Below are positions 3,545 to 61,850 of a stretch of 64,000 nt of DNA, in pieces. Positions within the stretch are counted from its first letter, which is position 1, and every line of letters starts with the position of its first letter. A program made the position numbers and the translations under genes. The notes beneath the pieces are model-generated. The model searched no databases. It saw nothing but the letters and a program-made list of their open reading frames with translations, and had not been told where the DNA came from. The stretch comes from Okamejei kenojei (Eukaryota), in assembly GCA_035221665.1 (NCBI GenBank), contig CM069155.1, forward strand, positions 26,970,001 through 27,034,000, read 5' to 3'.

Positions 3545-4780
3545 AGGCCATCAATTACACCCACTAATCGGGAACACCGCTCAATAATCCATCAGTAACC
3601 CACCCAGTGCTACAGGCAATAATAACCCCCTAGATTTACATACCCAGCATCAGAAGCAATGATTAATAAACTCCTAACATGTCAGACGTCGACTACACAG
3701 CCAATGTTACTTCCATTGGCAACACTGTGTCATCAGTCACACACTCAATGTATTCCATTGGGATACATTGTAACCCATTCTCGGAGGTACTCCCATTATG
3801 AAGACCACGAGTGTCGCCGATACCACTGCTACCACCTGCATACAACATTACACCAAAGCTAATCCGCAAACATTAAATCCTCATTATTTCTCAGTACAAA
3901 GTTGCCTTCGGGAATACATCGAACATAAAATCAATCGTTAAGATATCCAATGTTACAACTACCCAATATCACAATCGCCAGTAACACACAAGGGATTAGA
4001 GCCAATAACAACACGAACTGTATTACAGTTACTGGGGATTCAACCGACGTGACACAATGAATAAAGAATTTGGCATTGCAGGCATCAGTAACCCAAACAA
4101 CATGAACACCTTCAGTCACACACCCAAAATTCCAGCCGGTTTGGTGTATTCCAACATGAATACACGAAACGCTGCCTGTTTCCGTACCATTACCGTCATG
4201 AATACCATACCTGGTATTCCTGTCATCCGTCTTCACATCCAATATTACAGCTTCTAATAACCTACACATCAGATCAGCCATGTGTAAAATTCACATAATT
4301 ATAGCCACAAATAACTCAACTGATATGACAGGGATCAATAACACGCTGAGTATCACACATATCCGTAGTGTACCCAACATTAAAGCCATCATTAATCAAA
4401 CTATCCACCGATGCATCCATCAGCAGCACACCCGGCATTGTTTCCAATTGAAACTGGCCCAGTGTTGTCGCCTGGAATAACCAACAGCACTGCAGCCATG
4501 CAACTCCAGTTACCCACCAACTTCAGAAACTCTATCTACATGTCAGCCATCATTATAGCAATACCGAGCAATGCTCTCATTAGTGACACATGTGACAACG
4601 CAGAAAACAAAACCCACACATTCGGCTCTCAGTAAAACTCACAACGTTCATTCCATGTGAGTGAACCAGTCAACATTAAAGTCATTAGTAAACCATACAA
4701 TATTATATCACCCAACGTTTCAGCAATTGGGAATACTTTTAACAATGACATACGCTCCATAAATGCAACGTTAAACCTGC
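3545..4780. repeat. Highly diverged 27-bp minisatellite in SLC2A11-like intron 4
   Basis: Consecutive 27-mers at 4081/4108/4135 and 4303/4330/4357/4384; consensus about GCCATCAGTAACACACCCAACATTACA. Confidence 0.65.
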
Positions 4781-5136
4781 CCAAAGTACAACTCGCGGCA
4801 TTAATGTGAACGCTACGACCAGCGGCGGTTCAGCACCACGGACAGCTGCGTGTGAAGCAAGTTGGACAAGGATCCAAAGTTTCGCAAACGCTCAGTTCCG
4901 ATGGTGTTGGTTGGTCAAACACTGCGGGTTGAGACTGGAGGCCGAACGCATCTTATTGTTTAGTTCAAAGAAACGCTGGAGCTCCATAACGTTGCTGGTT
5001 TCAGCGCCCAATAATTACTCGGGTTGAATGGACCAGCGTCTTTCACCATCCTCAGGGTGGTCGCCAACCTCAGGGTGAGAGGTGTGTTCAAAACCAACAA
5101 ACCACATCTTGAACCAAGGCAGAAGGGCTCAGGTAC

Positions 5137-5261
5137 CTGCATTGATCCCGTACAGGAGCCGCCCCACCAGAATCATTTCAAACGACTGCACCCTCTTGCT
5201 GAACATCATGATGATTGCAGCTGTGATGGCCACAATGTTGTTGAACAGCAGCGCGTTCTTC
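5137..5261 (-). CDS. SLC2A11-like exon 4 (TM3-TM4): KNALLFNNIVAITAAIIMMFSKRVQSFEMILVGRLLYGINA
   Basis: 125-nt exon, CCAG| acceptor and G|GTACCT donor, with the SFEMxxxGRxxxG motif. Confidence 0.95.
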
Positions 5262-5628
5262 CTGGAACACAAATGCATTGGTGCCACTAAATGGGGACAA
5301 CATCATATATTCATCTGCAGTTACTGGCGAGGATGGGATGATGTGTGCGCCTAGTCTACTGATAATGACCTGCCACGGAGGCTGCTACAAGTAAGAACGT
5401 CATTGTTCTGTTTGGGACATATGACAATAAAACACTTTTTGCTCTTGAACACCTGCCATGCAAGTTGCCCAATCCGTGCAGTTGTGGCCATTGGGGCACC
5501 TGGATTAAATCCCCGCCCACTAGCCTGCATCCCGGTGAGTAGCTCTGGGATAACAAATATCCTGGGTCAGGAAGACAGAAAAATAATGACATTATATTTA
5601 CTCACTATTTTCAACCAAACCTCCTTAC

Positions 5629-5789
5629 CTCCCATACTTGACAGAGAGATGGCCGGCGTTTAAGGCTCCAAGCAGTCCTCCGATTGGATAAATTGAGACG
5701 ATTACATACCAGAGCAGTTTCACTGTGGTTCCGTCCACAGATTTGTCAAAGCGTTGGAACCACGTCTCAGCGATGAATTCCTTAATGAA
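5629..5789 (-). CDS. SLC2A11-like exon 3 (loop 1, TM2): FIKEFIAETW...IVSIYPIGGLLGALNAGHLSVKYGR
   Basis: 161-nt exon with AG/GT boundaries and the sugar-porter GR motif at its end. Confidence 0.95.
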
Positions 5790-6417
5790 CTGCGTCACAA
5801 TTGTAATTAAATAAAACAACCTTGCATTAGCAATCTGGGCATAAAATAGCAGAGAAGAAGACGTGCATTTCTAAAGGGCCTTTCACAGCCCCAGGACCTC
5901 CCGATCACTTTCGAAGTTTAGCGGCTGCAGATCTGGGATGTTTTTTGTCCAGCATTTAATCCCAACCTTGAGAGCCCTCGAGGTGCTGGTGAGCCGCCTT
6001 CTTCAACACTGTAGAGGCAGAGAATCTGGTTCCCCTTCCCTCCCCTCTCCCTGTGCGGCGTCTCCTGGTAAAATATTAACACCAGGTTTCACCGGGGACA
6101 CTTTTCCCTCGCATCGCTCTGTCTGTGGTATTCTCGACCCCGTCTCCTGGGGGTATCAGCGGAATAAATCTCAGCTTTTGCTCTCCCGAGAGCATTCCCT
6201 GCACGGATGGGATGGGTAAAACTGTGGGAGTTGGCTGATTTTTTTGTCTTGCTCAGGGAAATATTGCAGATGCACGTGAAGAGGGGACAAGTTAATAATC
6301 CTACATTCATGGGGTCTCCTTCATGACTTGCGGTCCCCAAGCACTTTACAACAACCCTACCGCGAGTGGAGTCCTCTTGAATTGCAGCCACTGTTGTGGT
6401 GTTGGACCACTCTTCGA

Positions 6418-6520
6418 GAATCAGTCTGAAGCAGGGTCTCGGCCCGAAACGTCACCCATTCCTTCTCTCCAGAGACGCTGCCTGACCCGCTGAGTTACTC
6501 CGGCATTTTCTGTCAACCGT
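6418..6520 (+). mobile_element. Short Penelope-derived element with hammerhead-like core (6426-6453)
   Basis: Same sequence as the 3' end of the GIY-YIG-bearing fragment at 13150-13780 and as the copy at 60988-61082. Confidence 0.7.
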
Positions 6521-6778
6521 AAGGTTGTGCAGGTTGGTGCAAGAACCTGATAGTTGTAGGAATGTAGCCATTCCCAAACCTGGTGGTGTGGGACTTAAAG
6601 CTTCTGTATTCGATTACCCGGCCGCTTGGGCTGTTTGTTCTCCCTAGACTCCGCGTATGGAGGCGCTTTGTCTTAATCCACTGTCCCATTCAGATCCCTA
6701 ACGCCGTCCATGTGGTTCTCAGTGAAATCCCGACGATGTATTTAATCTGCTCATTGGCTACAAGCCGGAGCCACTTAC

Positions 6779-6877
6779 CGCTGAAGGCGCATTGATAGAT
6801 GACATGTTGAATCCATATTGGAAGCCTCCCCCAATGCCGGTCACCAGGATCAGTGCGAGAAGCATTCGGCCCTGAAG
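6779..6877 (-). CDS. SLC2A11-like exon 2 (TM1): LQGRMLLALILVTGIGGGFQYGFNMSSINAPSA
   Basis: 99-nt exon, CTGCAG| acceptor and |GTAAGT donor. GIGGxFQYGFN...INAP is the class II GLUT TM1 motif. Confidence 0.93.
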
Positions 6878-7429
6878 CTGCAGTGTGAACAGAATGGATG
6901 AGAGCTCTGACACAGATTCAACTCTTCTCACTGGCAGGGGGGAGGGGGGGAGGGGGGAGGGGGGAGGGGAGGGGGGAGGAAGGAGGGGAGGAGGGGTTAT
7001 CCTTCCGACCGAAAAAGGACGAAGTGTTTACTATATACTTATCGATACCTATCCTACCTATAAGTATCGTGTACATATAACGTATACCAAGATACGTATT
7101 ACTTATAATTCTAAGTATATAATTATAAGTAACTCATTATGTTAATTAATTATATTAATACAATTAATATTATTTATTAATTCTAATATAAGATATTGCT
7201 GATCTGAGAATTAGTCATCGTTGTTATTATTTCTACCAACAACAATTACAATGGATTTTTATTCCTTTGAATGATGATCTAAACGAGGGATTTGAAACGA
7301 CTTAAGTCAAAGTCAACTGTTTTCTGATTTGGAGATTTCCGAAATTAAAACTAAATCCGGCTAATTCAGAGCCGCTCTTGATTTCACTTAAACATGGAAG
7401 ATGCTTAGATTTCCGGGTAGCCGCTGAAA

Positions 7430-8030
7430 TATACTGTAAAGCACTTTGGGAAGGCAGGTTCTGATGGGACCTATGGAGTAAATGACAGGTACTTCAGGAA
7501 CGCTGATGTGCAGTGAGACTGTGGGTGCTAGTCCAAAGCTCCCTGAAAGTGGCGACACAGGCGGACAGGGTAATAAAAAAGGCATTAGGTTTACTTGCCT
7601 TTATAGGCCGAGGTATCGAGTGTAGGGGTCGGGATGTCAAGTTGATTTTACAAAACATTTGGTGCATTGTGTACCGTTCTGGTTGGCACACTAGAGGAAA
7701 GACAAGGTAACATTTGTGAGAGTTCAGAAGAGTTCGCGGGGCTGCTGTTTCCAACGGAGGGCTGTAGTTCTGAGATTTGGAGGATGTAGGTAATGTTATA
7801 GAGGTTTTTAAATTACAAATGGCATGGGTAGGATATATAGTTTCTCAGGGCAAGGGAATCTAGATCTAGAGGCCATAGGTTTAAGGTGAGCGGGGAAGAT
7901 TCAAAAGAGATTGATGGGTAAGTTCTTCCTACAGAGGATGGCGATTATCAGAAAAAAAAGCTGCCAGAGGAGGCCGGTGCAAATACAACGTTCAACGTAC
8001 GGCCGGACAGGTTTAGACAGGATAGGTAAT
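7430..8030 (+). mobile_element. Degraded CR1 fragment
   Basis: SLKVATQADRVIKKALGLLAFIGRGIECRGRDV is CR1 ORF2-like. Confidence 0.75.
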
Positions 8031-8492
8031 GCAAGGAAATAGGATTAACGTAGAAAGCCGCCACGAGGTGGTACATTATATTATTGTGCCCCGGTTTAGA
8101 GATCCCGCAAGTAGACATCCTCGTACAAAAGACACGTTTGTTTAGACTGAGGCTTGGAGACAACTCATCCCGTGTCGTTAAAAACGTCTTTTCAAAATTC
8201 TTCACCCCCGGAAGCCGAGCATGTTCTGGGAATGTTTATTCAACGTTGCATGCCTGGTTCCAGCATAAAGTATGATATTTAACAGAAGTAACCAACGCAC
8301 ATTTAGTTTATTCTGACATAATGATGGGTCGGAAGAGCATTGTGAAAATAATCAGGTTTAAGGTGCTGGAAATCTGTAATATAAACAGAAAACGCTGGGA
8401 AAAAAAATCAGCTGCTTGGTCAGCAAGAGAGAATATCGTATTTCTGATCACGCTTCGATTATTCGAATTATACGATATTGTTCAGGAATGGT

Positions 8493-8795
8493 TTTAGAGT
8501 TTAGAGATAAAGCTTGGAAACAGGTCCTTCGGCCCAACGAGTCCATACCCATCATTGATCACCCGTTCACACTAGTTATATGTTATTCCTCTTTCGCATC
8601 CAGTCCCTACACACTCGGGGCAATTTACAGAGGCCAATTCCTCAACAAGGCAACACGTCTTTGGGGTGTGGAAGGAAACCGGAGCCCCCGGATGAAACCC
8701 ACGTGCGCACTCCACACAGACAGCAGCCGGAGGGCAGAATCGAACCCGGGTTTCTGGCGCTGCGAGGCAGCAACTCCACCAAATGCGCCACTGTT
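8493..8795 (-). mobile_element. tRNA-derived SINE (HE1-like)
   Basis: Minus strand head GGCGCATTTGGTGGAGTTGCTGCCTCGCAGCGCCAGAAACCCGGGTTCGATTC with A/B-box-like motifs, and a CR1-like tail. Confidence 0.75.
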
Positions 8796-9602
8796 CCGCT
8801 CCACATTCAGCGCTGGGTGTCATTCAACAGTTGGTGTTCCAACCCCCATCTCCAGTAATATTGCCATTCACTCAGCTCGCAACTGGATGACGGGGCGATG
8901 GGTTTTATTGGGCAAGCGCCAGCGGTTGTTTGGCTGACCGGTCCAGGCGGCCACATGGTAACCCGGGCATCCAGCGACCCCACATCCTGGGCCGGGCACC
9001 GACTGCGGGCGTCAGGGCAGTGGGGCCGGGGGTTAAATCCTGGCGGCGGAGCTTGTTCCGAGAAAGCAGGTGGCTAACAGGAGTTATTCGGCCACACATT
9101 TCAGCACCAAACTTCCTTAACAGGCGTCGCCGAGGCTCTTTATCTGCAAACGTTTTGTCCTCTATGCGCTGAGTGTCTTGGCGAGCGACAATTGACAGCA
9201 GTCAGTGTCATCGAGAGGGATCTCAGAAGTCCACATCAACCAAACCGTTGTGAGTCAGACTGTTCCCCACTGCTGGCGCTGGTTTGTGTTCTGTACCCCT
9301 GTCCAACCCGACACAGATGGGCCACCTGCCTTTTACAGTGAATCTGTCGGAGCGGCGATCATTGCCCCACGCCAGCCCCAGTGAAGGTACGGCGCTGTGA
9401 ACAGCCGATAAACCTCACTCACTCTGACCTCACCCACCAAACACCCCCAACCATTCCACTCCATCTTAAACTCCCTGCTCGCAGGTCCTCGGATGACAAG
9501 CAGGAAGAGTTAGATTGTCTATAAAGCGCAGAGCTCTCTCCACACTCACCTGTCAACCACTCTCAGGGAAGATGCAGCGCGGGTTAGACTGCGGAGACAT
9601 AG

Positions 9603-9740
9603 GAGGGGTGGGGGTGTGTGGGGGGGGGGGGTGGAGGGGTGGGAGGGGTGGGGGTGTGTGTGGGAGGGGGGGGTGTGGAGGGGTGGGGGTGTGTTGGGGG
9701 TGTGTGGAGGGGTGGGAGTGTGTGGGGAGGGGGGTGGGAG
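9603..9740 (+). repeat. G/T-rich low-complexity tract (GGGGT/GGAGGG repeats) with G-quadruplex potential
   Basis: Many consecutive runs of three or more G. Confidence 0.8.
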
Positions 9741-11839: not shown

Positions 11840-12340
11840 CCCAGAGTATTTGCCAAGGGTGGGGGAATCAAGAACTAGAGGGCATATAAGATGAGGGGGA
11901 AAAAATTGGAATTTGAGGGGCAACTTTTTAACACAGAGGACGGTGGGTATAATGAACAAACTGCATGAAGTAGTGCATGGGAGCTACAATAACAACAATT
12001 AAAAGACATTATGTGTAGGAAGGAATTGCAGAAACTGGTTTACACCGAAGATGGAAACTAAATGCTGGGGCATCTCTCGAGGGAAGGACTGGGCGACATT
12101 TTGGGTCAATACCATTCTTCAGACTAAGAGACATAATTCGTTTCCCTCTCTCCTCTGTCTGAAGAAGGGTCTCGCCCCGAAACATCCCCCATTCTTTTAA
12201 CAGACATTACATGGATAGGCAAGATTTAGAGTGATACAGGCCAGGCACAGGCAAATGGGACTAACCTGGATGGGGCATTTTGGCTGGACTAGACAAGTTG
12301 GGCCGAAAAGTCTGTTTCCATGCATTATGAATATATTATC
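11840..12340 (+). mobile_element. CR1 3' fragment interrupted at about 12012-12197 by two inverted Penelope-derived short elements
   Basis: CR1 sequence resumes after the insert; AGACATTA is repeated on both sides; the insert contains TTCTTCAGAC...GTCTGAAGAA in inverted orientation. Confidence 0.65.
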
Positions 12341-13149: not shown

Positions 13150-13780
13150 AGAGCCCAGAGTTTTGTTGCAGGGTAGTAATGCAACTTGTTATGTCCACAA
13201 AGGGCATTAAGCACAAACTGGGCGATCATTTTGGTGAACACCTGTTTCAGTCCGTCTGCCAAACCTTCCGGTTGCCAAACACTTTAACTCCTGTTCCCAT
13301 ACTGACCTTTCTGCCCTGGGCATCCTCAATTGTTAGAGTGAAACCAAACGTAAATTGGAGGAACAGCACCTTATATGTCGCTTCGGCAGCTTACAACCCA
13401 GCAGTATGAATATAAATTTCTCTAACTTTAAGTTACCCTTGCATCCCCTCTCTCTATGTCCCTCCCCCACCCAACGTTGTTATATTAGTTTCACTGTCGT
13501 CCTGGTGAGTTTCATTGTCTGTATAGCCAACCCATTTTCACCTAGCCCCCAGCCAATAATGGAGGGTTTCCTAGATCATCGTTACTTTTTTGCATATCTT
13601 TCATTTCTTTGCTCTATATCTCTCGTTTCCTTTTTCCCTTACTCTCAGTCCAAAGAAGAGTCTTGACCTGAAACATCACCTCTTCCTTTCCTCCAGAGAT
13701 GCTGCCTGACCCGTTGAGTTATTCCAGTTCTTTGTGTCTATCTTTGGTTTAAACCAGCATCTGCAGTTCCTTCCTACACA
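13150..13780 (+). mobile_element. Penelope-like element fragment (GIY-YIG endonuclease C-terminus plus 3' repeat)
   Basis: KHKLGDHFGEHL...EEQHLICRFGSLQPSSMNINFSNFK is typical of the end of PLE GIY-YIG domains. Confidence 0.8.
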
Positions 13781-26170: not shown

Positions 26171-29100
26171 TGGTAAAATGAAGTAACCCAGAACACAAGG
26201 AGGAAATACACTGTAAAACAACTTGAAAATGTTAACTAAAATGTTACAATTGTCCGACTGCCAAGTGTGCAAATGAAGCACCACAAATATCAACTGTGAA
26301 ATTTGCTGCTGCAACATTTCTGCATCTTCTACACCGGTACCAAAAGGAAGATGACAGGAACAGATTTTGAGCTAGTAACAAGATTGGGCGATCGATGGTA
26401 ATGTGCCAATATACCCACACAACGAACCAGTTATACAAAATAATCAGATCTCCTGCCAGAAACGGCAGGGAACAATAGCCCTTACAGTCAGTACCTATCC
26501 AGACCAAGTACTAGAGAGATCAAAACACCAGAAAGTCAGCCTGCTGATATGAATAGGGATCAGTATTCAGTCAGTTAGTTCCAGTACTAAATTGCGTGAG
26601 CTATTTTTCCAGTTGCTGATCACACAGGGTCACTTGGATAAGGAAGGACAGAGATAGTGTGAGTACCTCTGAATGCACTAAATCAGCTGATTAGTGATAG
26701 CTAACACAAACAGGAGGATTACCATTCTTAAACTCAGCCAAATAACTGATTTTTTAGGCAGAAACGGTAAGGCTTAATAAATAAAATTGCTACTTCAACT
26801 GACATATTTATTTCATATCTCATATCAGTCAAATGTCAAGTTAAGAGACAATCCTCACCGATGCAATGAGAAACTCTCTGCACAATATTACATTTATAAT
26901 AATGACCTGTACATCAGTATTGGACATAATTTCAAAGTTTTGAAAATCATACAAAGATTGAAAATATGGCAAACAATGAGAGGATTGCAAGAGTTCAGAA
27001 CACAGATCAACAAAGTGTAGTTATTTGACGCAGATAAGTGCAGTGACATGCTTTGAAAAGACGATCAAAACACAATTGAAGGCACAATCTGGACCGGTGT
27101 GCAGGAACGCAAGAATCTGGGATATTTGAAGGTGGCAGGATATTCCGGGAAGCCAAATTTTTTGCTGTCTATATTACGAATATAAAGTCATGCTAAACCT
27201 TTACAAACCACTCTGAGATCTCATGGAGCATCATATTAACTTCCTGTCACGGTCCTTTACGATTGTCTAGGCCTCAGTGAAAGTGTTGATGTGATTTATC
27301 ACAATGACAGCAAGAATGAGAGATTTTATTTCTGTGGAGGTGGTAGAGCTAGAATGGTTCCCCTTACAACCGAGAAAGGCGAGAACAGATGTGGCACAGA
27401 TATTCACAATCATTAAGGATTTGAAAACCTTGTTTTGATTTGATTTTGGACCAATTTGATTTTGCTGGACAATACAGGGGATCTTCTATGCTTTTGTGCA
27501 CAGTGATAACTATGTTATACTATAGAAGTATGGTGAAGAATGCAAATATGCTCTACTAAGCCTGGACATTCTGCAAGGGTCTGGACTACAGCTGATGAAC
27601 AGAAAGCACAATATTCCATACCCTCTTCTTGCACTAGTTATGCCTCTGCCTCAGAACTACAAAGTAGTTACCCCTGGAAGCTTACTCACTTTGGTGGTTG
27701 CATGTCCAGTAGGTTCTCATCTCTTTTGCCCATTCTGATTGTGCATTGGCTTCTCATATTCAGGCAAACACCAGATGGTGCTGCAGAGCAATGGATATTT
27801 ACTCGTTTTGTGTAACATAACGTGGTGTGTTGCAATATCCCATGAACACTCTTCAAAGCTTTCAGTGTGGAATGGAAGGGGCGAGGGGTGGAATGGAGAA
27901 ACTAGACAAACTAAATAACAAATGGGTACAACGTTGTCGAAATGCTCAGAAGTCTGGGGGAAAAAAACACTACAGATACTGGAAATCTAAAAGAGCAGAA
28001 AATGCTGGAAATAGTCAGCAGAGCTGGCCACATTTGTGGATCGGGTTCTCTTCCCACAGATGCAGCCTGACCTGCTGAATATTTCCAGCATTTTACGTTT
28101 TAGTTTGTGCTCATCTGGTCCGTCAGTATTTATGGCGAACAATTAACAACTTGAAAAGTGAACTGTTTCTCTCTTCACAGATATTGCTCACCCTGCTGAG
28201 TATTCCCAGCATTTTCTTTTTCCATACCTCATCTCCCATTCATACCAAATTTATGTAATTATTCTTGCTATCACATGCTATCTTTTACACAAAAAACACA
28301 ACCTCTCTAAATGTTTAAAGTCATCTCTTGGACTTCAATCAAGTGGTTATTCTTCACATTCAAGTCAGTTACTCAACCACAGAGGAGGAGGATATCTCTG
28401 CCAAGGACAACCCCATCCTCATCCATGTTCATGCACTGGCATTTCCTAACGCCAGACAGTGAGTGGGCAGTAAGTATGTGAAATCTGATTTCCTTCCTTC
28501 CTGGATTAAAGAAAGGAAACTGTGTTCAGCACTTCTACTGCATCTTTGTTTGAGATAACCCATCTTGCTATAGATCAGGCTGAAATCAAATGCAGAATCA
28601 ACCAGCTCCATGAAGCATCAAGTGACATCTTAAACCAATGAATTCATCATGGGCCCTGACCATGGCTTCTATAAAAAAAAACCAAATAAACAATATTGCA
28701 GGATTTAAAAGGGGGGGGGGGGGGGAGGTTTTCATTTTTACAAAGCCACAATTTATTGACTCAAGAGGTCAGACTCGTACCAATAAACCGTGGTCAACAC
28801 ATGCACTCCATGACTCCTTCTGTGGACTGAGTGAACAGGCAGAATCCTGATCAAAAAGGTCAGCCAAAGGTTTCTCCAATAGCCTTGGACTCCAAACTCC
28901 ACACAACTTCCAGATATTAGAAATATAAAGTGTGCACAGAAGAGCTACAAGAGGTGAAACTAAACTCCTACAATATCACTTATAGTAGCCACGCCCAGCT
29001 CCTGGGCAAACAGTATATGGAGGTACTGAACGGGGCAAAAAAAACAAAACATGTACATGGATGGTGCTAAATCTGGGAGGCCAATACTATCAAGACAAAC

Positions 29101-36477: not shown

Positions 36478-36598
36478 TGTAAGAAAGAACTGCAGTTGCT
36501 GGTTTAAATCGAAGGTAGACACAAAATGCTGGAGTAACTCAGCATCTCTGGAGAGAAGGAGTGGGCGACGTTTTGAAGAAGACCCTTCTTCAAAACGT
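36478..36598 (-). mobile_element. Short Penelope-derived element with TSD-like TGTTTATATATAT flanks
   Basis: Reverse complement matches 13680-13780; flank repeated at 36464 and 36598. Confidence 0.65.
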
Positions 36599-38404
36599 GT
36601 TTATATATATATGTTGTGCTACTGTGAGTAAGAATCTCAGAGTTCCATTTTAGAACAAATGACAATAAAACTCCTCCAGACTCTTGACTCTTAAATATAA
36701 TTGAACCATAGCAATGGTGATTAGACATTGTCTGGCATAAACATCTTGTTAATGAAATTTAGAAGAATTCAATTGTTGCTCTGAATGACAAATGTGAGTT
36801 CAAACTCTATGTCATGTTTCTAAAATGCGATTTTTCAATTTAACATTTTTTAAATTTATTTTTGTTTGTCAATTTTTTTTTAAACCAAACTTGAAAAACC
36901 TATCATACACATATCTATGGTAGTCAATATCGAGTTGAACTTATTCTTAGGAAACCCTTCTGCCTCCTGATTCGATGATGATTAACTCAGTAATTCACTG
37001 ATTTAAATCCAGTGATCTACAAATATGCCTGACAAAGTGTCATTTCTTCATCTAAACCTAATTTTATTCTGTTCACATTGCCTATTAGCCTCCCGCTCTA
37101 GAAGTATTACATTTATTTGGCACAAAGGTCACTGCTAAGTTCTTTTTCTAAATGCCATTTTAGAAGCTTAAAGAGGCTGATCCCCTCTGACAAATTAATG
37201 TGCGTTTCCCTTCTTCCAGAGAACAGTAAAAGATCATGAAAATGTTTGACCTGTAGTTGGTAAATAAGCACATGCTTAAACCCACCTCCACAATGCTAAT
37301 GCATCAGGGTGGCATAATTGAGAAGCGAATACAAAGTTATACGCATCCCGGACCTTAAATCTAAAAGTTGTGAAAAGTACTTTCATTGTCAACAAAATGC
37401 AACTACTGTCTGGAACTGGGAGAGGAGAACCAGGTTCTGAAGAACTTTTAGCTTCTTTGATTTTTCACAGGAAAGGGATTTAAATTATGCTTTGTTTTTA
37501 TTTAGTACATGACCAATATTGTACTAAAGAAATATTCTATCTTCTGCTGTTTTCTTCCATAATATTAATTCAAGTTATTTTTTTCACTCGCTCCAGATAC
37601 TGCTGTGTATTTTTCTTTTGGCTTCAGTTCTCTGCTATAGCTCCGAGCTGCATTTTAGAACTTTTAGAAGCCACTTTTGGATAAGTTTTTTTGTATAATT
37701 TCTCTCAATATAAATAGATAGCTTCATTAACACAGCAATATTGGCCTCATTCTATTAAAGATATTTCCTTTGGCTTATCCATCCCTCTCTCATACCTCTG
37801 CATTTTAGAATGTGTCGTCTCACTATTCCAGATCTGGTGAAGCGGTTTTGACCTGAAACACTAATTTTGTTTTTTTCTTCCAATGCAACCAGATTTGCTG
37901 TGTTTTCAGCATTTAGTTTTCATTTCATATTTTGAGCATCTGCAATTTTTTTGATTTCCAATAATTGAACTCTTTGTCTGAGCTCAGATAGCAATGTTTA
38001 TCCATTTCCTCTTCTTCCATCACCACACCCTGCTATTATGTTATACATTTTACATAATGAACCCTGCACATTCTTCCAAAATAAATGTAACACTAATAAA
38101 TTTTGAGTCATTTTTAACCATCTCTTTGTTTGTGCAGATTAACTCAACTTCAAAAGCTCTGACTAGTTGGGATTAGTTATGTCGACCTTTCAGAAGACAT
38201 CATGGTTACATGTCTGTGTATCGTCACAACAGAGGAAAAATCGGTTATTAATAATATGAAAATAAATTGATAACATCATCTCCTTCGACACTGTTATACC
38301 ACATCAGGTCAAATTAGGATTTACAACAGGGTTTCTGTCATACAACTACTTCTGCATGGTTCTGCCCACTCACACAATATAAAAAATGATGGCAGTTAGC
38401 TTGC

Positions 38405-40639: not shown

Positions 40640-41430
40640 CTTGAGAGCAAGTATAAAGTAAGTGACCACTTTGCCAAGCACTTGCGCTCCATCCACCATG
40701 CCTCTTGGAGCTCCCCATTGCTAACCATTTGAATTCCTCTTCCCATTCCCACACTGACATTTCTGTCTTGTCTTTCCCTCTGCCATGGTTAGGCCAACCA
40801 CATACTAGAGAAACAGCGCCTTATATTCCACCTGGGTAGTCTACAACCTAACAGCTTGAATATTGAATTTTCCAATTTCAGGTCATCTTTATCCCCTCGT
40901 CCTCTTTTTCTCTCCAACGGACCTACCCAGGTCCTCTCACATACCCACATGCACATGTGCACACTCACACGCACCCTTTTTCCGACCAAGCCAACCCAGT
41001 TTCGTTCTCCTCCCCCACTTGTCAATCATACAAAATCCTCCTACCATGACCTTTATACCTTCTCCTACTGTTCCCATTGGCCCACCATCTCTCCTTTATT
41101 TGGTTCTTGTCAGATTCCATAATCTGCAAACCTTTGTCATCTCCACATCTCCTCCCAGCTCCTGTCACCATCTCCACCACTCCTACCTTACTCCATCTGC
41201 CAATCAATCTTTCCACATCTGAATGCACCTATTGCTTGCAGCTCATGCGTCACTTCTCCCTGCCACCTCTTTATACAGGCTATCTCTTTTCTACTCTTTC
41301 AATCCAGGTGAAGAATCATGACCAACAACGAGGGTCCATTTCCCTATTCGGATGCTGGCGGGGCTTTTGAGATTCTTTAGCAGTTTGTTTTTTGCTCCAA
41401 AGTCCAGCATCTGCAGGCTCTTATATATCC
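40640..41430 (+). mobile_element. Penelope-like element fragment (GIY-YIG C-terminus)
   Basis: LEKQRLIFHLGSLQPNSLNIEFSNFR followed by a pyrimidine-rich 3' region. Confidence 0.75.
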
Positions 41431-46979: not shown

Positions 46980-47075
46980 GGGTACACAAAAAGCTGGAGA
47001 AACTCAGCGGGTGCGGCAGCATCTAAGGAGTGAAGGAGATGGGCAACGTTTCAGGCCGAAACCCTTCTTCAGACT
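46980..47075 (-). mobile_element. Short Penelope-derived element with hammerhead core (47045-47072)
   Basis: Close reverse-complement match to 60988-61082. Confidence 0.75.
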
Positions 47076-48329: not shown

Positions 48330-48570
48330 GGGCAACATCCATTGTGGTCACCTCTGCATTGGAGACACCAAACGCAAATTGGATGATCACTCTGCATTAT
48401 TGAGCTTCTCGTAACCTGCCACTTTAATTCTCATCCTAGTCCCACTCTGACCTATCTGTCTGTGGTCTCCTACACTGTTACAATGAGGCCTAATACAAGC
48501 TTGAGGAGCAACATCTCATCCTTTGTCTGGGCAAGCTGCACCCTTCTAATATCAAATACTCCAACTTGAT
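48330..48570 (+). mobile_element. Penelope-like GIY-YIG remnant
   Basis: ETPNANWM.../KLEEQHLILCLGKLHP is homologous to 13200-13430. Confidence 0.6.
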
Positions 48571-59178: not shown

Positions 59179-60383
59179 CTTGAAAAGCCCTTTCCGCAGC
59201 TGATGCAAATGTACGGTTTTCCCACTGCTCCGTCGTGAGACCGAATATGATAGGTCATCCGGTCCTTCCGTTTGAAACGCTGGTGACAGATGGGACATTC
59301 AAATGGTTTTTCCCCTGAATGCGAGAGCTTATGGCGATTCAAGTGGTAAACATCCCTAAAAGCTTTACCGCAGAGCTCACAGGCCACATTTTTCCTCATT
59401 CTGCCTCTCTTACGGGGACTGTCAAGGCTGCTCGAAGAGGCCAGCAGATTGTCCCCGAGTCCTGGAAGCTGGTTCTCCCCAGACCCCAGTTCCACGTTCA
59501 GCCCCGTGTGCTGCGCCTCATGGAGCAGGAGGCGGTTCGAATTCTTGAACACTTTCCCACAGAAGCTGCAGGGGTAAAAACCCTCATCCCTCATGGCTAA
59601 TGGTGCCGTGAGCAGTGGCAGGTCAAATAGAGGAGCCTTCCGAGGCCGTCCTCGCCCCCTCTTGATCAGCTTGCCATGGTCAGGGCCCATTGAGTTCACT
59701 GGAGCCTGGAATTGACCAGCCACCAGGGTCGGTGCTGCAGGCGAAGTCATCAAGCCATCCATCATAGGTAATGAACCCTGCAGGGGCGGAAGGGCAGGAG
59801 CTGGGGCGCCTGGGCTACCTACCTTGACATCACCAGCACCCTGCAGGTGTCCATTTTCCCCTATAAAGTTGCCATTGGCACAAGCAGCGGCAGCCAAGTC
59901 CAGGGCAAAGCTGAAGTCCACATTGGCAGGGCGGAATACCATCATGTCTCCCCTGGCTGGTGGCACCATGATCTGGACGTTGGACTGTTTGATTACCTCC
60001 TGGCAAATCTCGATGACCGACCTCATGAGCAGAAACTTGGCGGCCGTCATGAGCTCGGGGAAGCTCTCGAGTCTCACCACGATGCGGGAGGTGTAGGCGA
60101 AGTCCAGGATGTCCCTGAAGACCTTGGCGCTGATGGTGTGCATCTCCAGCTCGCGGCCTTGGGCCTCATCCACCATCGCGCCGAACACCGACTCGAAGTA
60201 GTCGCTGCAGGCGGCCAGCACGGCCTTGTGAGCCGGGAAGCTCTCGTCGCCCACCCGCAGCACCACATCGCAGAAGCGGCCGCCGTTCTTCCTCTGACCG
60301 TTGAGTTTCTTCAACATGTCGGCGCTGTGCTGGCTCACCTGGTAGGTGTAGCTGTTCCAGGACGGCTCGGCAGCCCTTTCCAT
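59179..60383 (-). CDS. PATZ1: PATZ1 exon 1: BTB/POZ domain, AT-hook (KRGRGRPRK), first C2H2 fingers
   Basis: MERAAEPSWNSYTYQVSQHS...GGRFCDVVLRVGDESFPAHKAVLAACS is the PATZ1 N-terminus. ATG in GGCGGCGATGG context; AG|GTAAGT donor. Confidence 0.97.
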
Positions 60384-60780
60384 CGCCGCCGCCGCCGACT
60401 CGGAGCCGCGACCGAGGGGGGTTGGGAAAAACCGGCCCCCCTCAAACTCCGCCACTGAACAACACGGTTTAAAACCAGGTGGATTTGAAAAGGAGCGCGC
60501 GGTGCAAAGCTCCGCCTGCCGCCGAGCCGAGCGAGGGAAGGCCGCGCAGCCAAGGCCGGGGTGCGCTCCGCGCTGCTTTTGTTCCCCTCACAGCCGCCGG
60601 GCCCTGGCGCCGCGGGAGGCTCGGCAACATGGCAGCGCGGCGCTTCCTGTCAACTGCGACCCCTCCCGGGGGCCTGGGGAGGCACTGGCTTAGGGTGGGA
60701 GACACTGGGGCGGGGGGGCTCTGGCTCGGGGTCGGAGTCGTTGGCTCGGAGCGAGAGGTCCCCGCATAAGGTTGGGAGAC
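60000..60780. promoter_or_regulatory. CpG island over the PATZ1 start and promoter
   Basis: High GC and CpG density, a GC box (GGGGCGGGG near 60707) and a YY1-like CAACATGGC near 60626. Confidence 0.8.
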
Positions 60781-61850
60781 GCTGGCTGATGGTGGGAAAC
60801 GTCCTTGCTCAGGTTGGGGGGGGGGGGAGGGGGGCACAGACAGTGTGGCAAATAGGTTTGGGGGGTGGAACACTAGCTGAGGGTGAGGGGGGCACTGGCA
60901 GACGGCAGGGAGGTGACGGCAGCCTCAGAATAGGGTGGTACTGGCTCAGGACAGGCGGCGGGACGATGCCGGTGCAAGGATGGAGCAGTCTGAAGAAGGG
61001 TCTCGGCCCGAAACGTCGCCAATCTCCTTCGCTCCTTAGATGCTGCTGCACCCGCTGAGTTTCTCCAGCTTTTTGTGTACCCGCAAGGATGGAGCATGCT
61101 AGCATAGGATAGAGAACAGTTGCTCATGAGAGGTTGTAGCCTCAGATTGGAGAACATTGGTTCAGGAGAGAGGATGCTTAGGGGGAATTGCTCAGAATGG
61201 CAGATACAGCTAGGACAAGATACACTGGCGCAGGGCAGGGAATTGGCTTGGGGTGGGAGGCACCAGCTGAAGATGGGTACACTGCCTGGGGACCACTTAC
61301 TGATGATGGGAGACATTGTTTCAGGACTGGTTCAAGGTAGGGAACATTGACAAAGGCCAGTAAACATAACATGGACATGCTGGTACAGGTTTACAGGATA
61401 CTAGCTGAGTACTGGGAGAGAACACTTGCTGAGTACTGATAATAGGTCCAGAGTGAGAACACTGGCTCATGGTGGGAGACATTGGCTCAGTAAGGGGGAT
61501 TCATTCAGGACAAGATACACTGGCTTAGGCAGAGTAAACTGGCTCAGAATTTGTGTTATTGGCTTGAAGTGGGCGATGTCAGCTGAAAATGGAGCACTGT
61601 GGATAATGATGGTGGCTGAGCAGGAGACACAGTGAGGATGTGGCTAAGGAAAGGGGATGCTGGCTCAGGGAACGGGTTGAGGGCACTACGTGTGCAATAC
61701 TAGCATTTGGAGGACAGTTTGAAAGGGGAGAAGGTCTGGTTCAAAGGGGCATTAAGTTTAAGGAAGCACACAGAAGACATTGGATGTCAGTCAGGAACAC
61801 TAGCTCTTGAGGACATTGACTGAGAGCTGGAGACCGTGGCCCAACATGTG
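60680..61850. repeat. Degenerate about 20-bp repeat array (GGGAGACACTGGCTCAG-like) upstream of PATZ1
   Basis: More than 20 variants of ACACTGGCTCAG, e.g. near 60682, 60940, 61460, 61480, 61517, 61538 and 61660. Confidence 0.55.
60988..61082 (+). mobile_element. 95-bp Penelope-derived element with intact hammerhead core and 14-bp TSD
   Basis: Flanked by GCAAGGATGGAGCA at 60974-60987 and 61083-61096. Confidence 0.85.

Follow-up and report, generated by a model that had tools for sequence, protein, structure and literature searches.

As far as the covered parts of the sources go, the closest described counterparts of the motif analysed here are the minimal hammerheads (min-HHR) of metazoan Penelope-like elements (PLEs) (Cervera and De la Pena 2014, PMC4209133). 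These share with it the type I core with an extra base after A9, the G10.1-C11.1 pair, the palindromic 15.2-16.2 positions, and presence in both terminal repeats (pLTRs), and they likewise occur mostly as single motifs on truncated copies, with some close opposite-strand pairs. The present family differs in its helix I, which has 2 bp versus 4-5 bp in Schistosoma, and in a copy number far above the 4,000-9,000 of coelacanth and Xenopus. The covered parts of that paper describe no fixed 5' boundary, and the words "shark", "skate", and "callorhinchus" are absent from two of its three supplementary files.

At the level of the whole element, the EN+ PLEs of the Neptune clade (Craig et al. 2021, PMC8557442) show the same single ORF with an RT domain, a C-terminal GIY-YIG domain, and a CX2-5CXXC linker, the latter marking Neptune and Nematis elements. 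They also share 5' truncation, partial tandems, inverted 5' copies, an optional 30-40-bp tail, and a pLTR hammerhead, whereas the long proline-rich N-terminal region of the ORF described below sets it apart from them. PAc, a Poseidon element from Anolis carolinensis (Frangieh et al. 2024, PMC11167929), has the same two adjacent 3' ends downstream of the hammerhead with the tail between them, and the uncut RNA is the apparent template, as here. In vitro, PAc initiates internally at two adjacent sites, with priming on both strands, and needs RNA downstream of the priming sites. These sites are demonstrated for PAc and are deduced here from genomic ends; moreover, the PAc ORF starts inside the hammerhead, whereas here the ATG lies downstream of it.

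The Penelope promoter of D. virilis (Schostak et al. 2008, PMC2377424) is TATA-less, lies within the pLTR, and combines an initiator with an ACGT-containing downstream element; a similar, putative arrangement appears here, together with partial tandems that have a variably truncated upstream copy. In D. virilis, an intron separates the start site from the hammerhead, whereas only 3 nt lie between the putative start and the core here, with no sign of an intron. Non-LTR retrozymes (PMC7229834; 10.64898/2026.07.22.740005) are likewise non-coding, hammerhead-bearing, and related to PLE pLTRs. However, they form 150-450-bp head-to-tail tandems with mostly canonical hammerheads and circular RNA, whereas the copies studied here are solo or head-to-head and carry the minimal motif.

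The insertion at 60988-61082 and its autonomous element

The window, meaning the whole analysed stretch of 64,000 nucleotides from Okamejei kenojei (GCA_035221665.1, contig CM069155.1, positions 26,970,001 to 27,034,000), carries a complete copy of the motif within a short insertion:

60974..60987, + strand: left copy of a 14-bp target-site duplication (TSD), same sequence as 61083-61096
60988..61082, + strand: 95-bp insertion, terminal-repeat stub of a young, putatively Neptune-type PLE, without the optional ~33-nt tail
60990..61017, + strand: minimal type I hammerhead motif (28 nt), read from the sequence
61083..61096, + strand: right copy of the 14-bp TSD

The 28-nt motif is present letter for letter as originally predicted, with the core, the extra A, a 4-bp stem II that includes a U-G pair, the palindromic ACGU, and the GUC triplet; every core residue is in place, and helix I consists of 2 bp. 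The insertion is 97% identical (blastn) to the pLTR end of the full-length copy L186, and its 3' end is common to the whole family. It is a TSD-flanked pLTR stub of an autonomous PLE, with the hammerhead as a likely idle passenger. An Rfam scan of the window at E-values up to 10 matched no hammerhead family, and a loose core pattern found six matches in the window against 2.18 expected, a mild enrichment reached by 2 of 100 shuffles.

The exact 28-mer occurs 49,817 times in the 2.76-Gb genome (reversed control, 0), in keeping with the high copy number that had been predicted. Unselected DNA totalling 400 kb holds 138 copies, which extrapolates roughly to 0.9-1 million genome-wide; 129 of them were analysed, and nine near stretch ends were left out. 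The predicted size of roughly 100 nt corresponds to a discrete ~95-130-nt class that comprises about half of all copies. Another 29 best genomic matches were fetched, and all share the same 3' end while reaching from 93 to >1,500 bp upstream, with 10-30-bp TSD candidates in 18 of them.

By following long copies, seven full-length loci were reached, all with a hammerhead in both pLTRs and with the motif intact. In L186, the hammerhead precedes the ATG by 162 nt, the frame is open for 1,185 aa, and a second hammerhead lies 3,954 bp after the first. The L186 protein matches RVT_1 (E 4.5e-6) and GIY-YIG (E 0.004), both below the curated Pfam cut-off; the RVT_1 match of another copy, L031, is above it. 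A CX4CXXC linker lies between RT and EN. Judged from the sequence, the element would be a Neptune-type PLE; the linker also fits Nematis. The short copies have the same sequence as the pLTR of these intact elements with an RT/GIY-YIG ORF, and the proposed Penelope link holds. Between the N-terminal domain and RT, residues ~160-460 of the L186 ORF form a long proline- and serine-rich stretch.

Counting positions from C3 = 0, the family has two fixed 3' ends, one at +93 and the other at the tail end near +126. The ~33-nt tail is present in 20 of 64 young copies, a set partly selected by core and therefore not used for judging cut-site starts. Partial tandems, 5' truncation, inverted 5' copies, the optional tail, and TSDs are also found in the family, and among 21 head-to-head pairs, 16 carry one tail and none carries two. 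This architecture matches known PLE structure. As for the ribozyme, the motif class, the pLTR location, and the scattering of single copies are already published, and the family is ordinary in this respect.

The window holds further members of the family and of its relatives:

6422..6516, + strand: older-subfamily stub, core A9 -> C
12027..12192: decayed head-to-head pair with a possible 8-bp TSD; - arm with tail at 12027-12125, + arm at ~12138-12192
13209..13773, + strand: older 5'-truncated PLE copy with a GIY-YIG C-terminal fragment, 3' UTR, decayed hammerhead, and tail (blastn and tblastn against L186)
36481..36592, - strand: older stub with tail and internal deletions
37838..37863, + strand: very decayed core of an older related family, read from sequence, without a blastn match to L186
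46980..47075, - strand: 96-bp stub of the same family, sense within PATZ1 intron 1, without a clear TSD

The remaining copies of the original prediction (at 6426, 12159, 47045, 12095, 13650, and 37833) all exist, and each departs from the family sequence; the stub at 36481..36592 is new. At 6426-6453, the reported core substitution stands as A9 -> C, and the GAAT arm of the proposed helix I is mostly host flank, because element homology begins at ~6422. The AUC triplet noted at 12159-12186 arises by a change at the G16.2 CpG, which destroys the ACGU palindrome, and this copy also has a U-C mismatch within stem II. Its head-to-head partner on the - strand is the copy at 12095-12125, correctly described as degenerate. 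At 47045-47072 (- strand), the UUCG loop and GUU triplet were recovered together with a further C11.1 -> U change, and the copy does lie in the sense orientation of PATZ1, a - strand gene, within intron 1. The copy at 13650 indeed has a GIY-YIG fragment ahead of it, a C-terminal piece at 13259-13429 that is 64% identical to the intact ORF (E 3e-15), and the one at 37833 is degenerate, as stated, and an old relative of the family.

Decayed PLE fragments also lie at 40642-40906, 48428-48568, and 9606-9728, comprising two endonuclease C-terminal pieces and one ORF piece. A long imperfect hairpin at 27995-28098 looks like an old fold-back that belongs to a related PLE family; it gives a weak Rfam miRNA-model match on both strands, far under the gathering score.

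The host gene nearest to the 95-bp insertion lies outside the element:

59179..60795, - strand: exon 1 of a PATZ1-like gene with BTB and C2H2 zinc fingers (ORF and Pfam; spliced contigs from three runs of one study, presumed RNA)

The name PATZ1 follows the original prediction and is taken here as an assumption. The spliced contigs, presumed to be RNA, bridge the PATZ1 intron that contains the 47045 copy. The 60990 copy lies ~190 bp past the longest PATZ1 contig end, at the edge of a CpG island and on the opposite strand (upstream, antisense). Past the window end, a + strand gene that we presume from its motifs to be DRG1-like stands head-to-head with PATZ1 (L193 8,850-8,920 and L194 1,100-3,600); it has a separate CpG island, ~12 kb away from the promoter of PATZ1.

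Ribozyme state and the boundary ahead of the core

The window copy at 60990 and the full-length copies possess the core CUGANGA / GAAA / NUH, with one base inserted between positions 9 and 10.1, as well as stem II with the G10.1-C11.1 pair and the palindromic 15.2-16.2. A helix I of 3-5 bp is absent; there are 2 bp only, and -3/+3 are paired in 12% of 67 copies. The hammerhead descriptor is fitted by 15 of the 129 unselected copies, and G12 is changed in 27% of the 67 ungapped copies, with CpG sites overall at 24%. Copies show CpG-type decay after insertion. The excess of compensatory stem II changes, whose absence the original prediction had named as a refuting sign, did not appear within this family: one paired double change was found versus 1.7 expected in 67 copies, a comparison of low power in a young, neutrally decaying family. 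Recurrent stem II variants are loop or wobble-pair changes, except for G10.3 -> A in 8 of 67 copies. Non-CpG catalytic positions change less than non-catalytic ones (5.7% vs 11.1%, p 0.0005); this is not counted as selection on copies, given that the difference is exaggerated by loop variants of subfamilies and by the alignment filter.

Folding models also predict that the ribozyme fold is disfavoured. The hammerhead-compatible fold is placed 4.1-8.7 kcal/mol above the minimum, with the core going into an alternative hairpin; for the window copy, the difference is 5.1 kcal/mol and P(stem II) is 0.001, and this copy folds no better than shuffles (z 0.53). A folding switch, with upstream sequence releasing the hammerhead at the 5' end of the RNA, was considered and rejected, as stem II probability is at most 0.03 with or without the upstream sequence.

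While the 3' ends of the family are fixed, its 5' ends also cluster. The first mismatch upstream of the 49,817 exact cores falls at -1 in 4,953, at -2 in 3,815, at -3 in 7,064, and at -4 in 6,006, so that homology is lost within 4 nt before the core in 43.8% (8.5-17.7% per position). At -8, the figure is 333 of 16,003 (2.1%), counted in the young subfamily only. Of the 129 copies analysed in the unselected 400 kb, 63 have their start at -6..+3 and two at +25..+31. The boundary is sharp, lying at about -4 to +2, and is spread over ~6 nt.

A template of cut RNA would instead give starts at +28. No excess of starts was found at the cut site: a purine stands before the post-cleavage sequence in 294 cases vs 543 at a control three bases on. 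When 30 loci with apparent cut-site starts were inspected, 10 proved to be point variants with the core upstream, and several were fold-back centres or partial cores.

The boundary sequence is (C/T)CAGTC, which we take to match the initiator consensus, with ACGT at +27 from its A. This ACGT resembles the RGACGTGY downstream element of the Drosophila Penelope internal promoter, the matches being short and partial. G is in modest excess before the junction (39/100, p 0.006; 41 G vs 20 C, p 0.01), and an extra G occurs occasionally at TSD-defined junctions, many of which carry other filler. Cap copying would give such an excess; A-to-G changes and inverted partners can do so too. In the assembled contigs of RNA runs, no element start or end sites are visible.

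Copies that span the pLTR-ORF junction divide by length. An exact 33-mer of this junction marks 167 loci, of which 97 were examined (90 of the first 100 plus the 7 full-length ones). Sixty-one loci have their end no more than 1 kb from the core; 30 of them extend as far as the core itself, and 19 of these 30 start at -6..+3. The long class consists of 36 loci in which the ORF side continues through all of the fetched DNA (at least 1.5 kb), seven of them verified as full length; 31 reach the core, and only two start at -6..+3, whereas the remaining 29 extend from 12 to >2,800 nt upstream of it. The contrast between 19/30 and 2/31 is significant (Fisher p 2.4e-6), with some loci possibly non-independent. 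Since short copies that reach the ORF have the same boundary, it is a property of the RNA of the autonomous element itself. It affects copies primed near it, and long copies need a template that continues upstream, whether a circle, a transcript of several units, or one reached by a template jump. The literature searched, mostly open-access and with PMC4209133 and bioRxiv supplements covered incompletely, yielded no description of the boundary or of the short/long contrast.

Within single elements, the two pLTRs are near-identical in 6/7 full-length copies, and different elements are equally alike (0-1% between most copies). pLTR identity is therefore uninformative as a circle test in so young a family, and one of the copies is chimeric in addition. 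In that copy, the full-length L187 (G000:C6:854301-864300), the two pLTRs differ at 7 of 244 positions, which suggests a two-template switch and points to template switching rather than one circle.

Origin of the short copies

The stubs are probably run-off copies of a presumably capped RNA 5' end, made after internal priming, with long copies deriving from longer templates. In this model, an internal pLTR promoter would start the RNA ~3 nt before the core, making the boundary a start site. The element's RT would prime inside its own RNA, ~65 nt downstream of the hammerhead cut site, at +93 or +126, and would run off the probably capped 5' end just ahead of the core to leave a ~95-nt stub with an uncut hammerhead. 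Head-to-head pairs may come from two primings, one per start site, on both target strands, which would leave a single tail. Long copies would require templates longer than one unit, such as circles made by dimeric cleavage and ligation, multi-unit transcripts, or a template jump. The stubs, lacking the downstream protein-binding RNA, would not move further. Several points count against this proposal. The boundary is spread over ~6 nt, an extra G is only occasional at TSD-defined junctions, the promoter-motif matches are short and partial, the RNA contigs show no start sites, and L187 points to template switching. A linear capped RNA alone predicts that full-length copies also stop at -3, yet 29 of 31 pass it; therefore, a second template or a jump must be added. 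In addition, PAc, the source of the analogy, is a Poseidon rather than a Neptune element.

A more specific version, possible but rather doubtful, holds that there are two template pools, in which capped linear transcripts give only the 95-130-nt stubs and unit-length RNA circles give long or more-than-unit copies. The linear transcripts would start 3 nt ahead of the hammerhead and yield stubs akin to retroviral strong-stop DNA, and the circles would arise by dimeric hammerhead cleavage and ligation. If true, the motif would serve both as a core promoter, with initiator and ACGT downstream element, and as a circularising ribozyme, and the two pools would constitute a genomic footprint for the long-proposed role of PLE hammerheads. 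The family is in any case a very large natural record of PLE replication, and both the role of the hammerhead and the formation of partial tandems are questions posed in the literature. A boundary that is fixed in short copies and missing from long ones, together with the lack of cut-site starts, offers precise predictions around the intact, young L186.

Other origins of the short copies and of their boundary have to be weighed against run-off from a capped RNA. The ~95-130-nt copies might form an independent non-autonomous retrozyme- or SINE-like family with its own promoter, transcribed and moved in trans by the PLE protein; the original prediction had called the element non-autonomous and retrozyme-like. 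We consider this unlikely. The discrete size class that makes up about half of the copies would suit such a family, and a stub would include the putative internal promoter; L048 and L051, with different TSDs, share the same odd fold-back junction, with similar filler in RNA contigs, and non-LTR retrozymes have been proposed to derive from pLTRs (10.64898/2026.07.22.740005). However, the short copies consist of pLTR sequence shared with the autonomous element, grade into longer copies, and lie solo or head-to-head without tandem arrays; in the 400 kb, none of 14 same-strand neighbour pairs within 450 bp carries two intact motifs. The same 5' boundary appears in short copies that reach the ORF start (19/30), and a stem II variant is found in short (4/47) and long (2/37) copies alike, a comparison of low power that rests on one variant and 95 nt at 97-100% identity. 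A tail-less stub would also lack the partner strand of a predicted long helix, and PAc needs downstream RNA (PMC11167929). Distinctly unlikely as well is a boundary at which RT, close to where it primed on a long RNA, is paused or blocked by RNA structure or a bound protein, without any RNA end. The core is predicted to pair with a downstream pyrimidine tract or with the tail, closing a ~128-nt domain whose 5' edge is near the boundary, and a protein bound to this domain only at initiation could let long copies pass on a second encounter. Nevertheless, the ~128-nt fold is not significant (z -1.6), a sequence-intrinsic stop should also halt long copies (2/31), and an enzyme would stop after unwinding a structure, not before; a barrier also leaves the initiator-like match and the G excess unexplained. 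A 3' splice site at the boundary (CAG/TCTG after a pyrimidine tract), with stubs as copies of spliced RNA, is extremely improbable. The upstream sequence is acceptor-like and the Penelope intron of D. virilis ends at helix I (PMC4209133), but break points are scattered across several bases, and this reading was rejected when 80 junction loci revealed no common upstream exon, their shared flanks being inverted element arms, an intact upstream element, or duplicated loci.

A different proposal concerns the fate of the dispersed copies, which might be active as ribozymes and cleave host transcripts, for example PATZ1 pre-mRNA. No core residue is missing from the 60990 copy, the 47045 copy is sense and intronic, and the extrapolated 0.9-1 million copies could in principle pair in trans. 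Even so, this is very unlikely. Few copies still fit the descriptor (15/129), G12 decays at about the CpG rate (27% vs 24%), covariation is lacking, and helix I has 2 bp; spliced PATZ1 contigs bridge the intron with the 47045 copy. For published minimal hammerheads, monomers do not cleave and dimers cleave weakly (PMC4209133), and the PAc ribozyme requires its protein, its cleavage being dispensable for insertion in vitro (PMC11167929). Host RNA cleavage is unlikely because a lone copy needs a dimer partner and its fold is predicted to lie 4-9 kcal/mol above the minimum. Moreover, the closing pair of the 47045 copy has undergone a CpG-type change, and the 60990 copy is on the strand opposite to PATZ1 and beyond its RNA contigs. 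Single copies in decay are probably without effect on host RNA.

Fold-back insertions and minor ends

L048 and L051 (G000:C1 near 834,600 and 890,050) are head-to-head insertions with different TSDs and the same 8-nt filler between the arms, and a filler like theirs also occurs in RNA contigs of two runs. It is either a joining product that recurs or a sign of a fold-back subfamily that is mobile. Three loci with an identical fold-back junction were also considered as independent moves and discarded, as their common downstream flank makes them duplicates of one insertion. In L055, L201, and L206, a PLE fold-back insertion lies within another repeated sequence that was later duplicated; their common flank is GC-rich with tandem CRE-like motifs. 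Finally, rare short copies (L346-L435) run beyond the tail; most of them have their end within the ORF start, 180-310 nt after C3, which suggests minor downstream priming sites.
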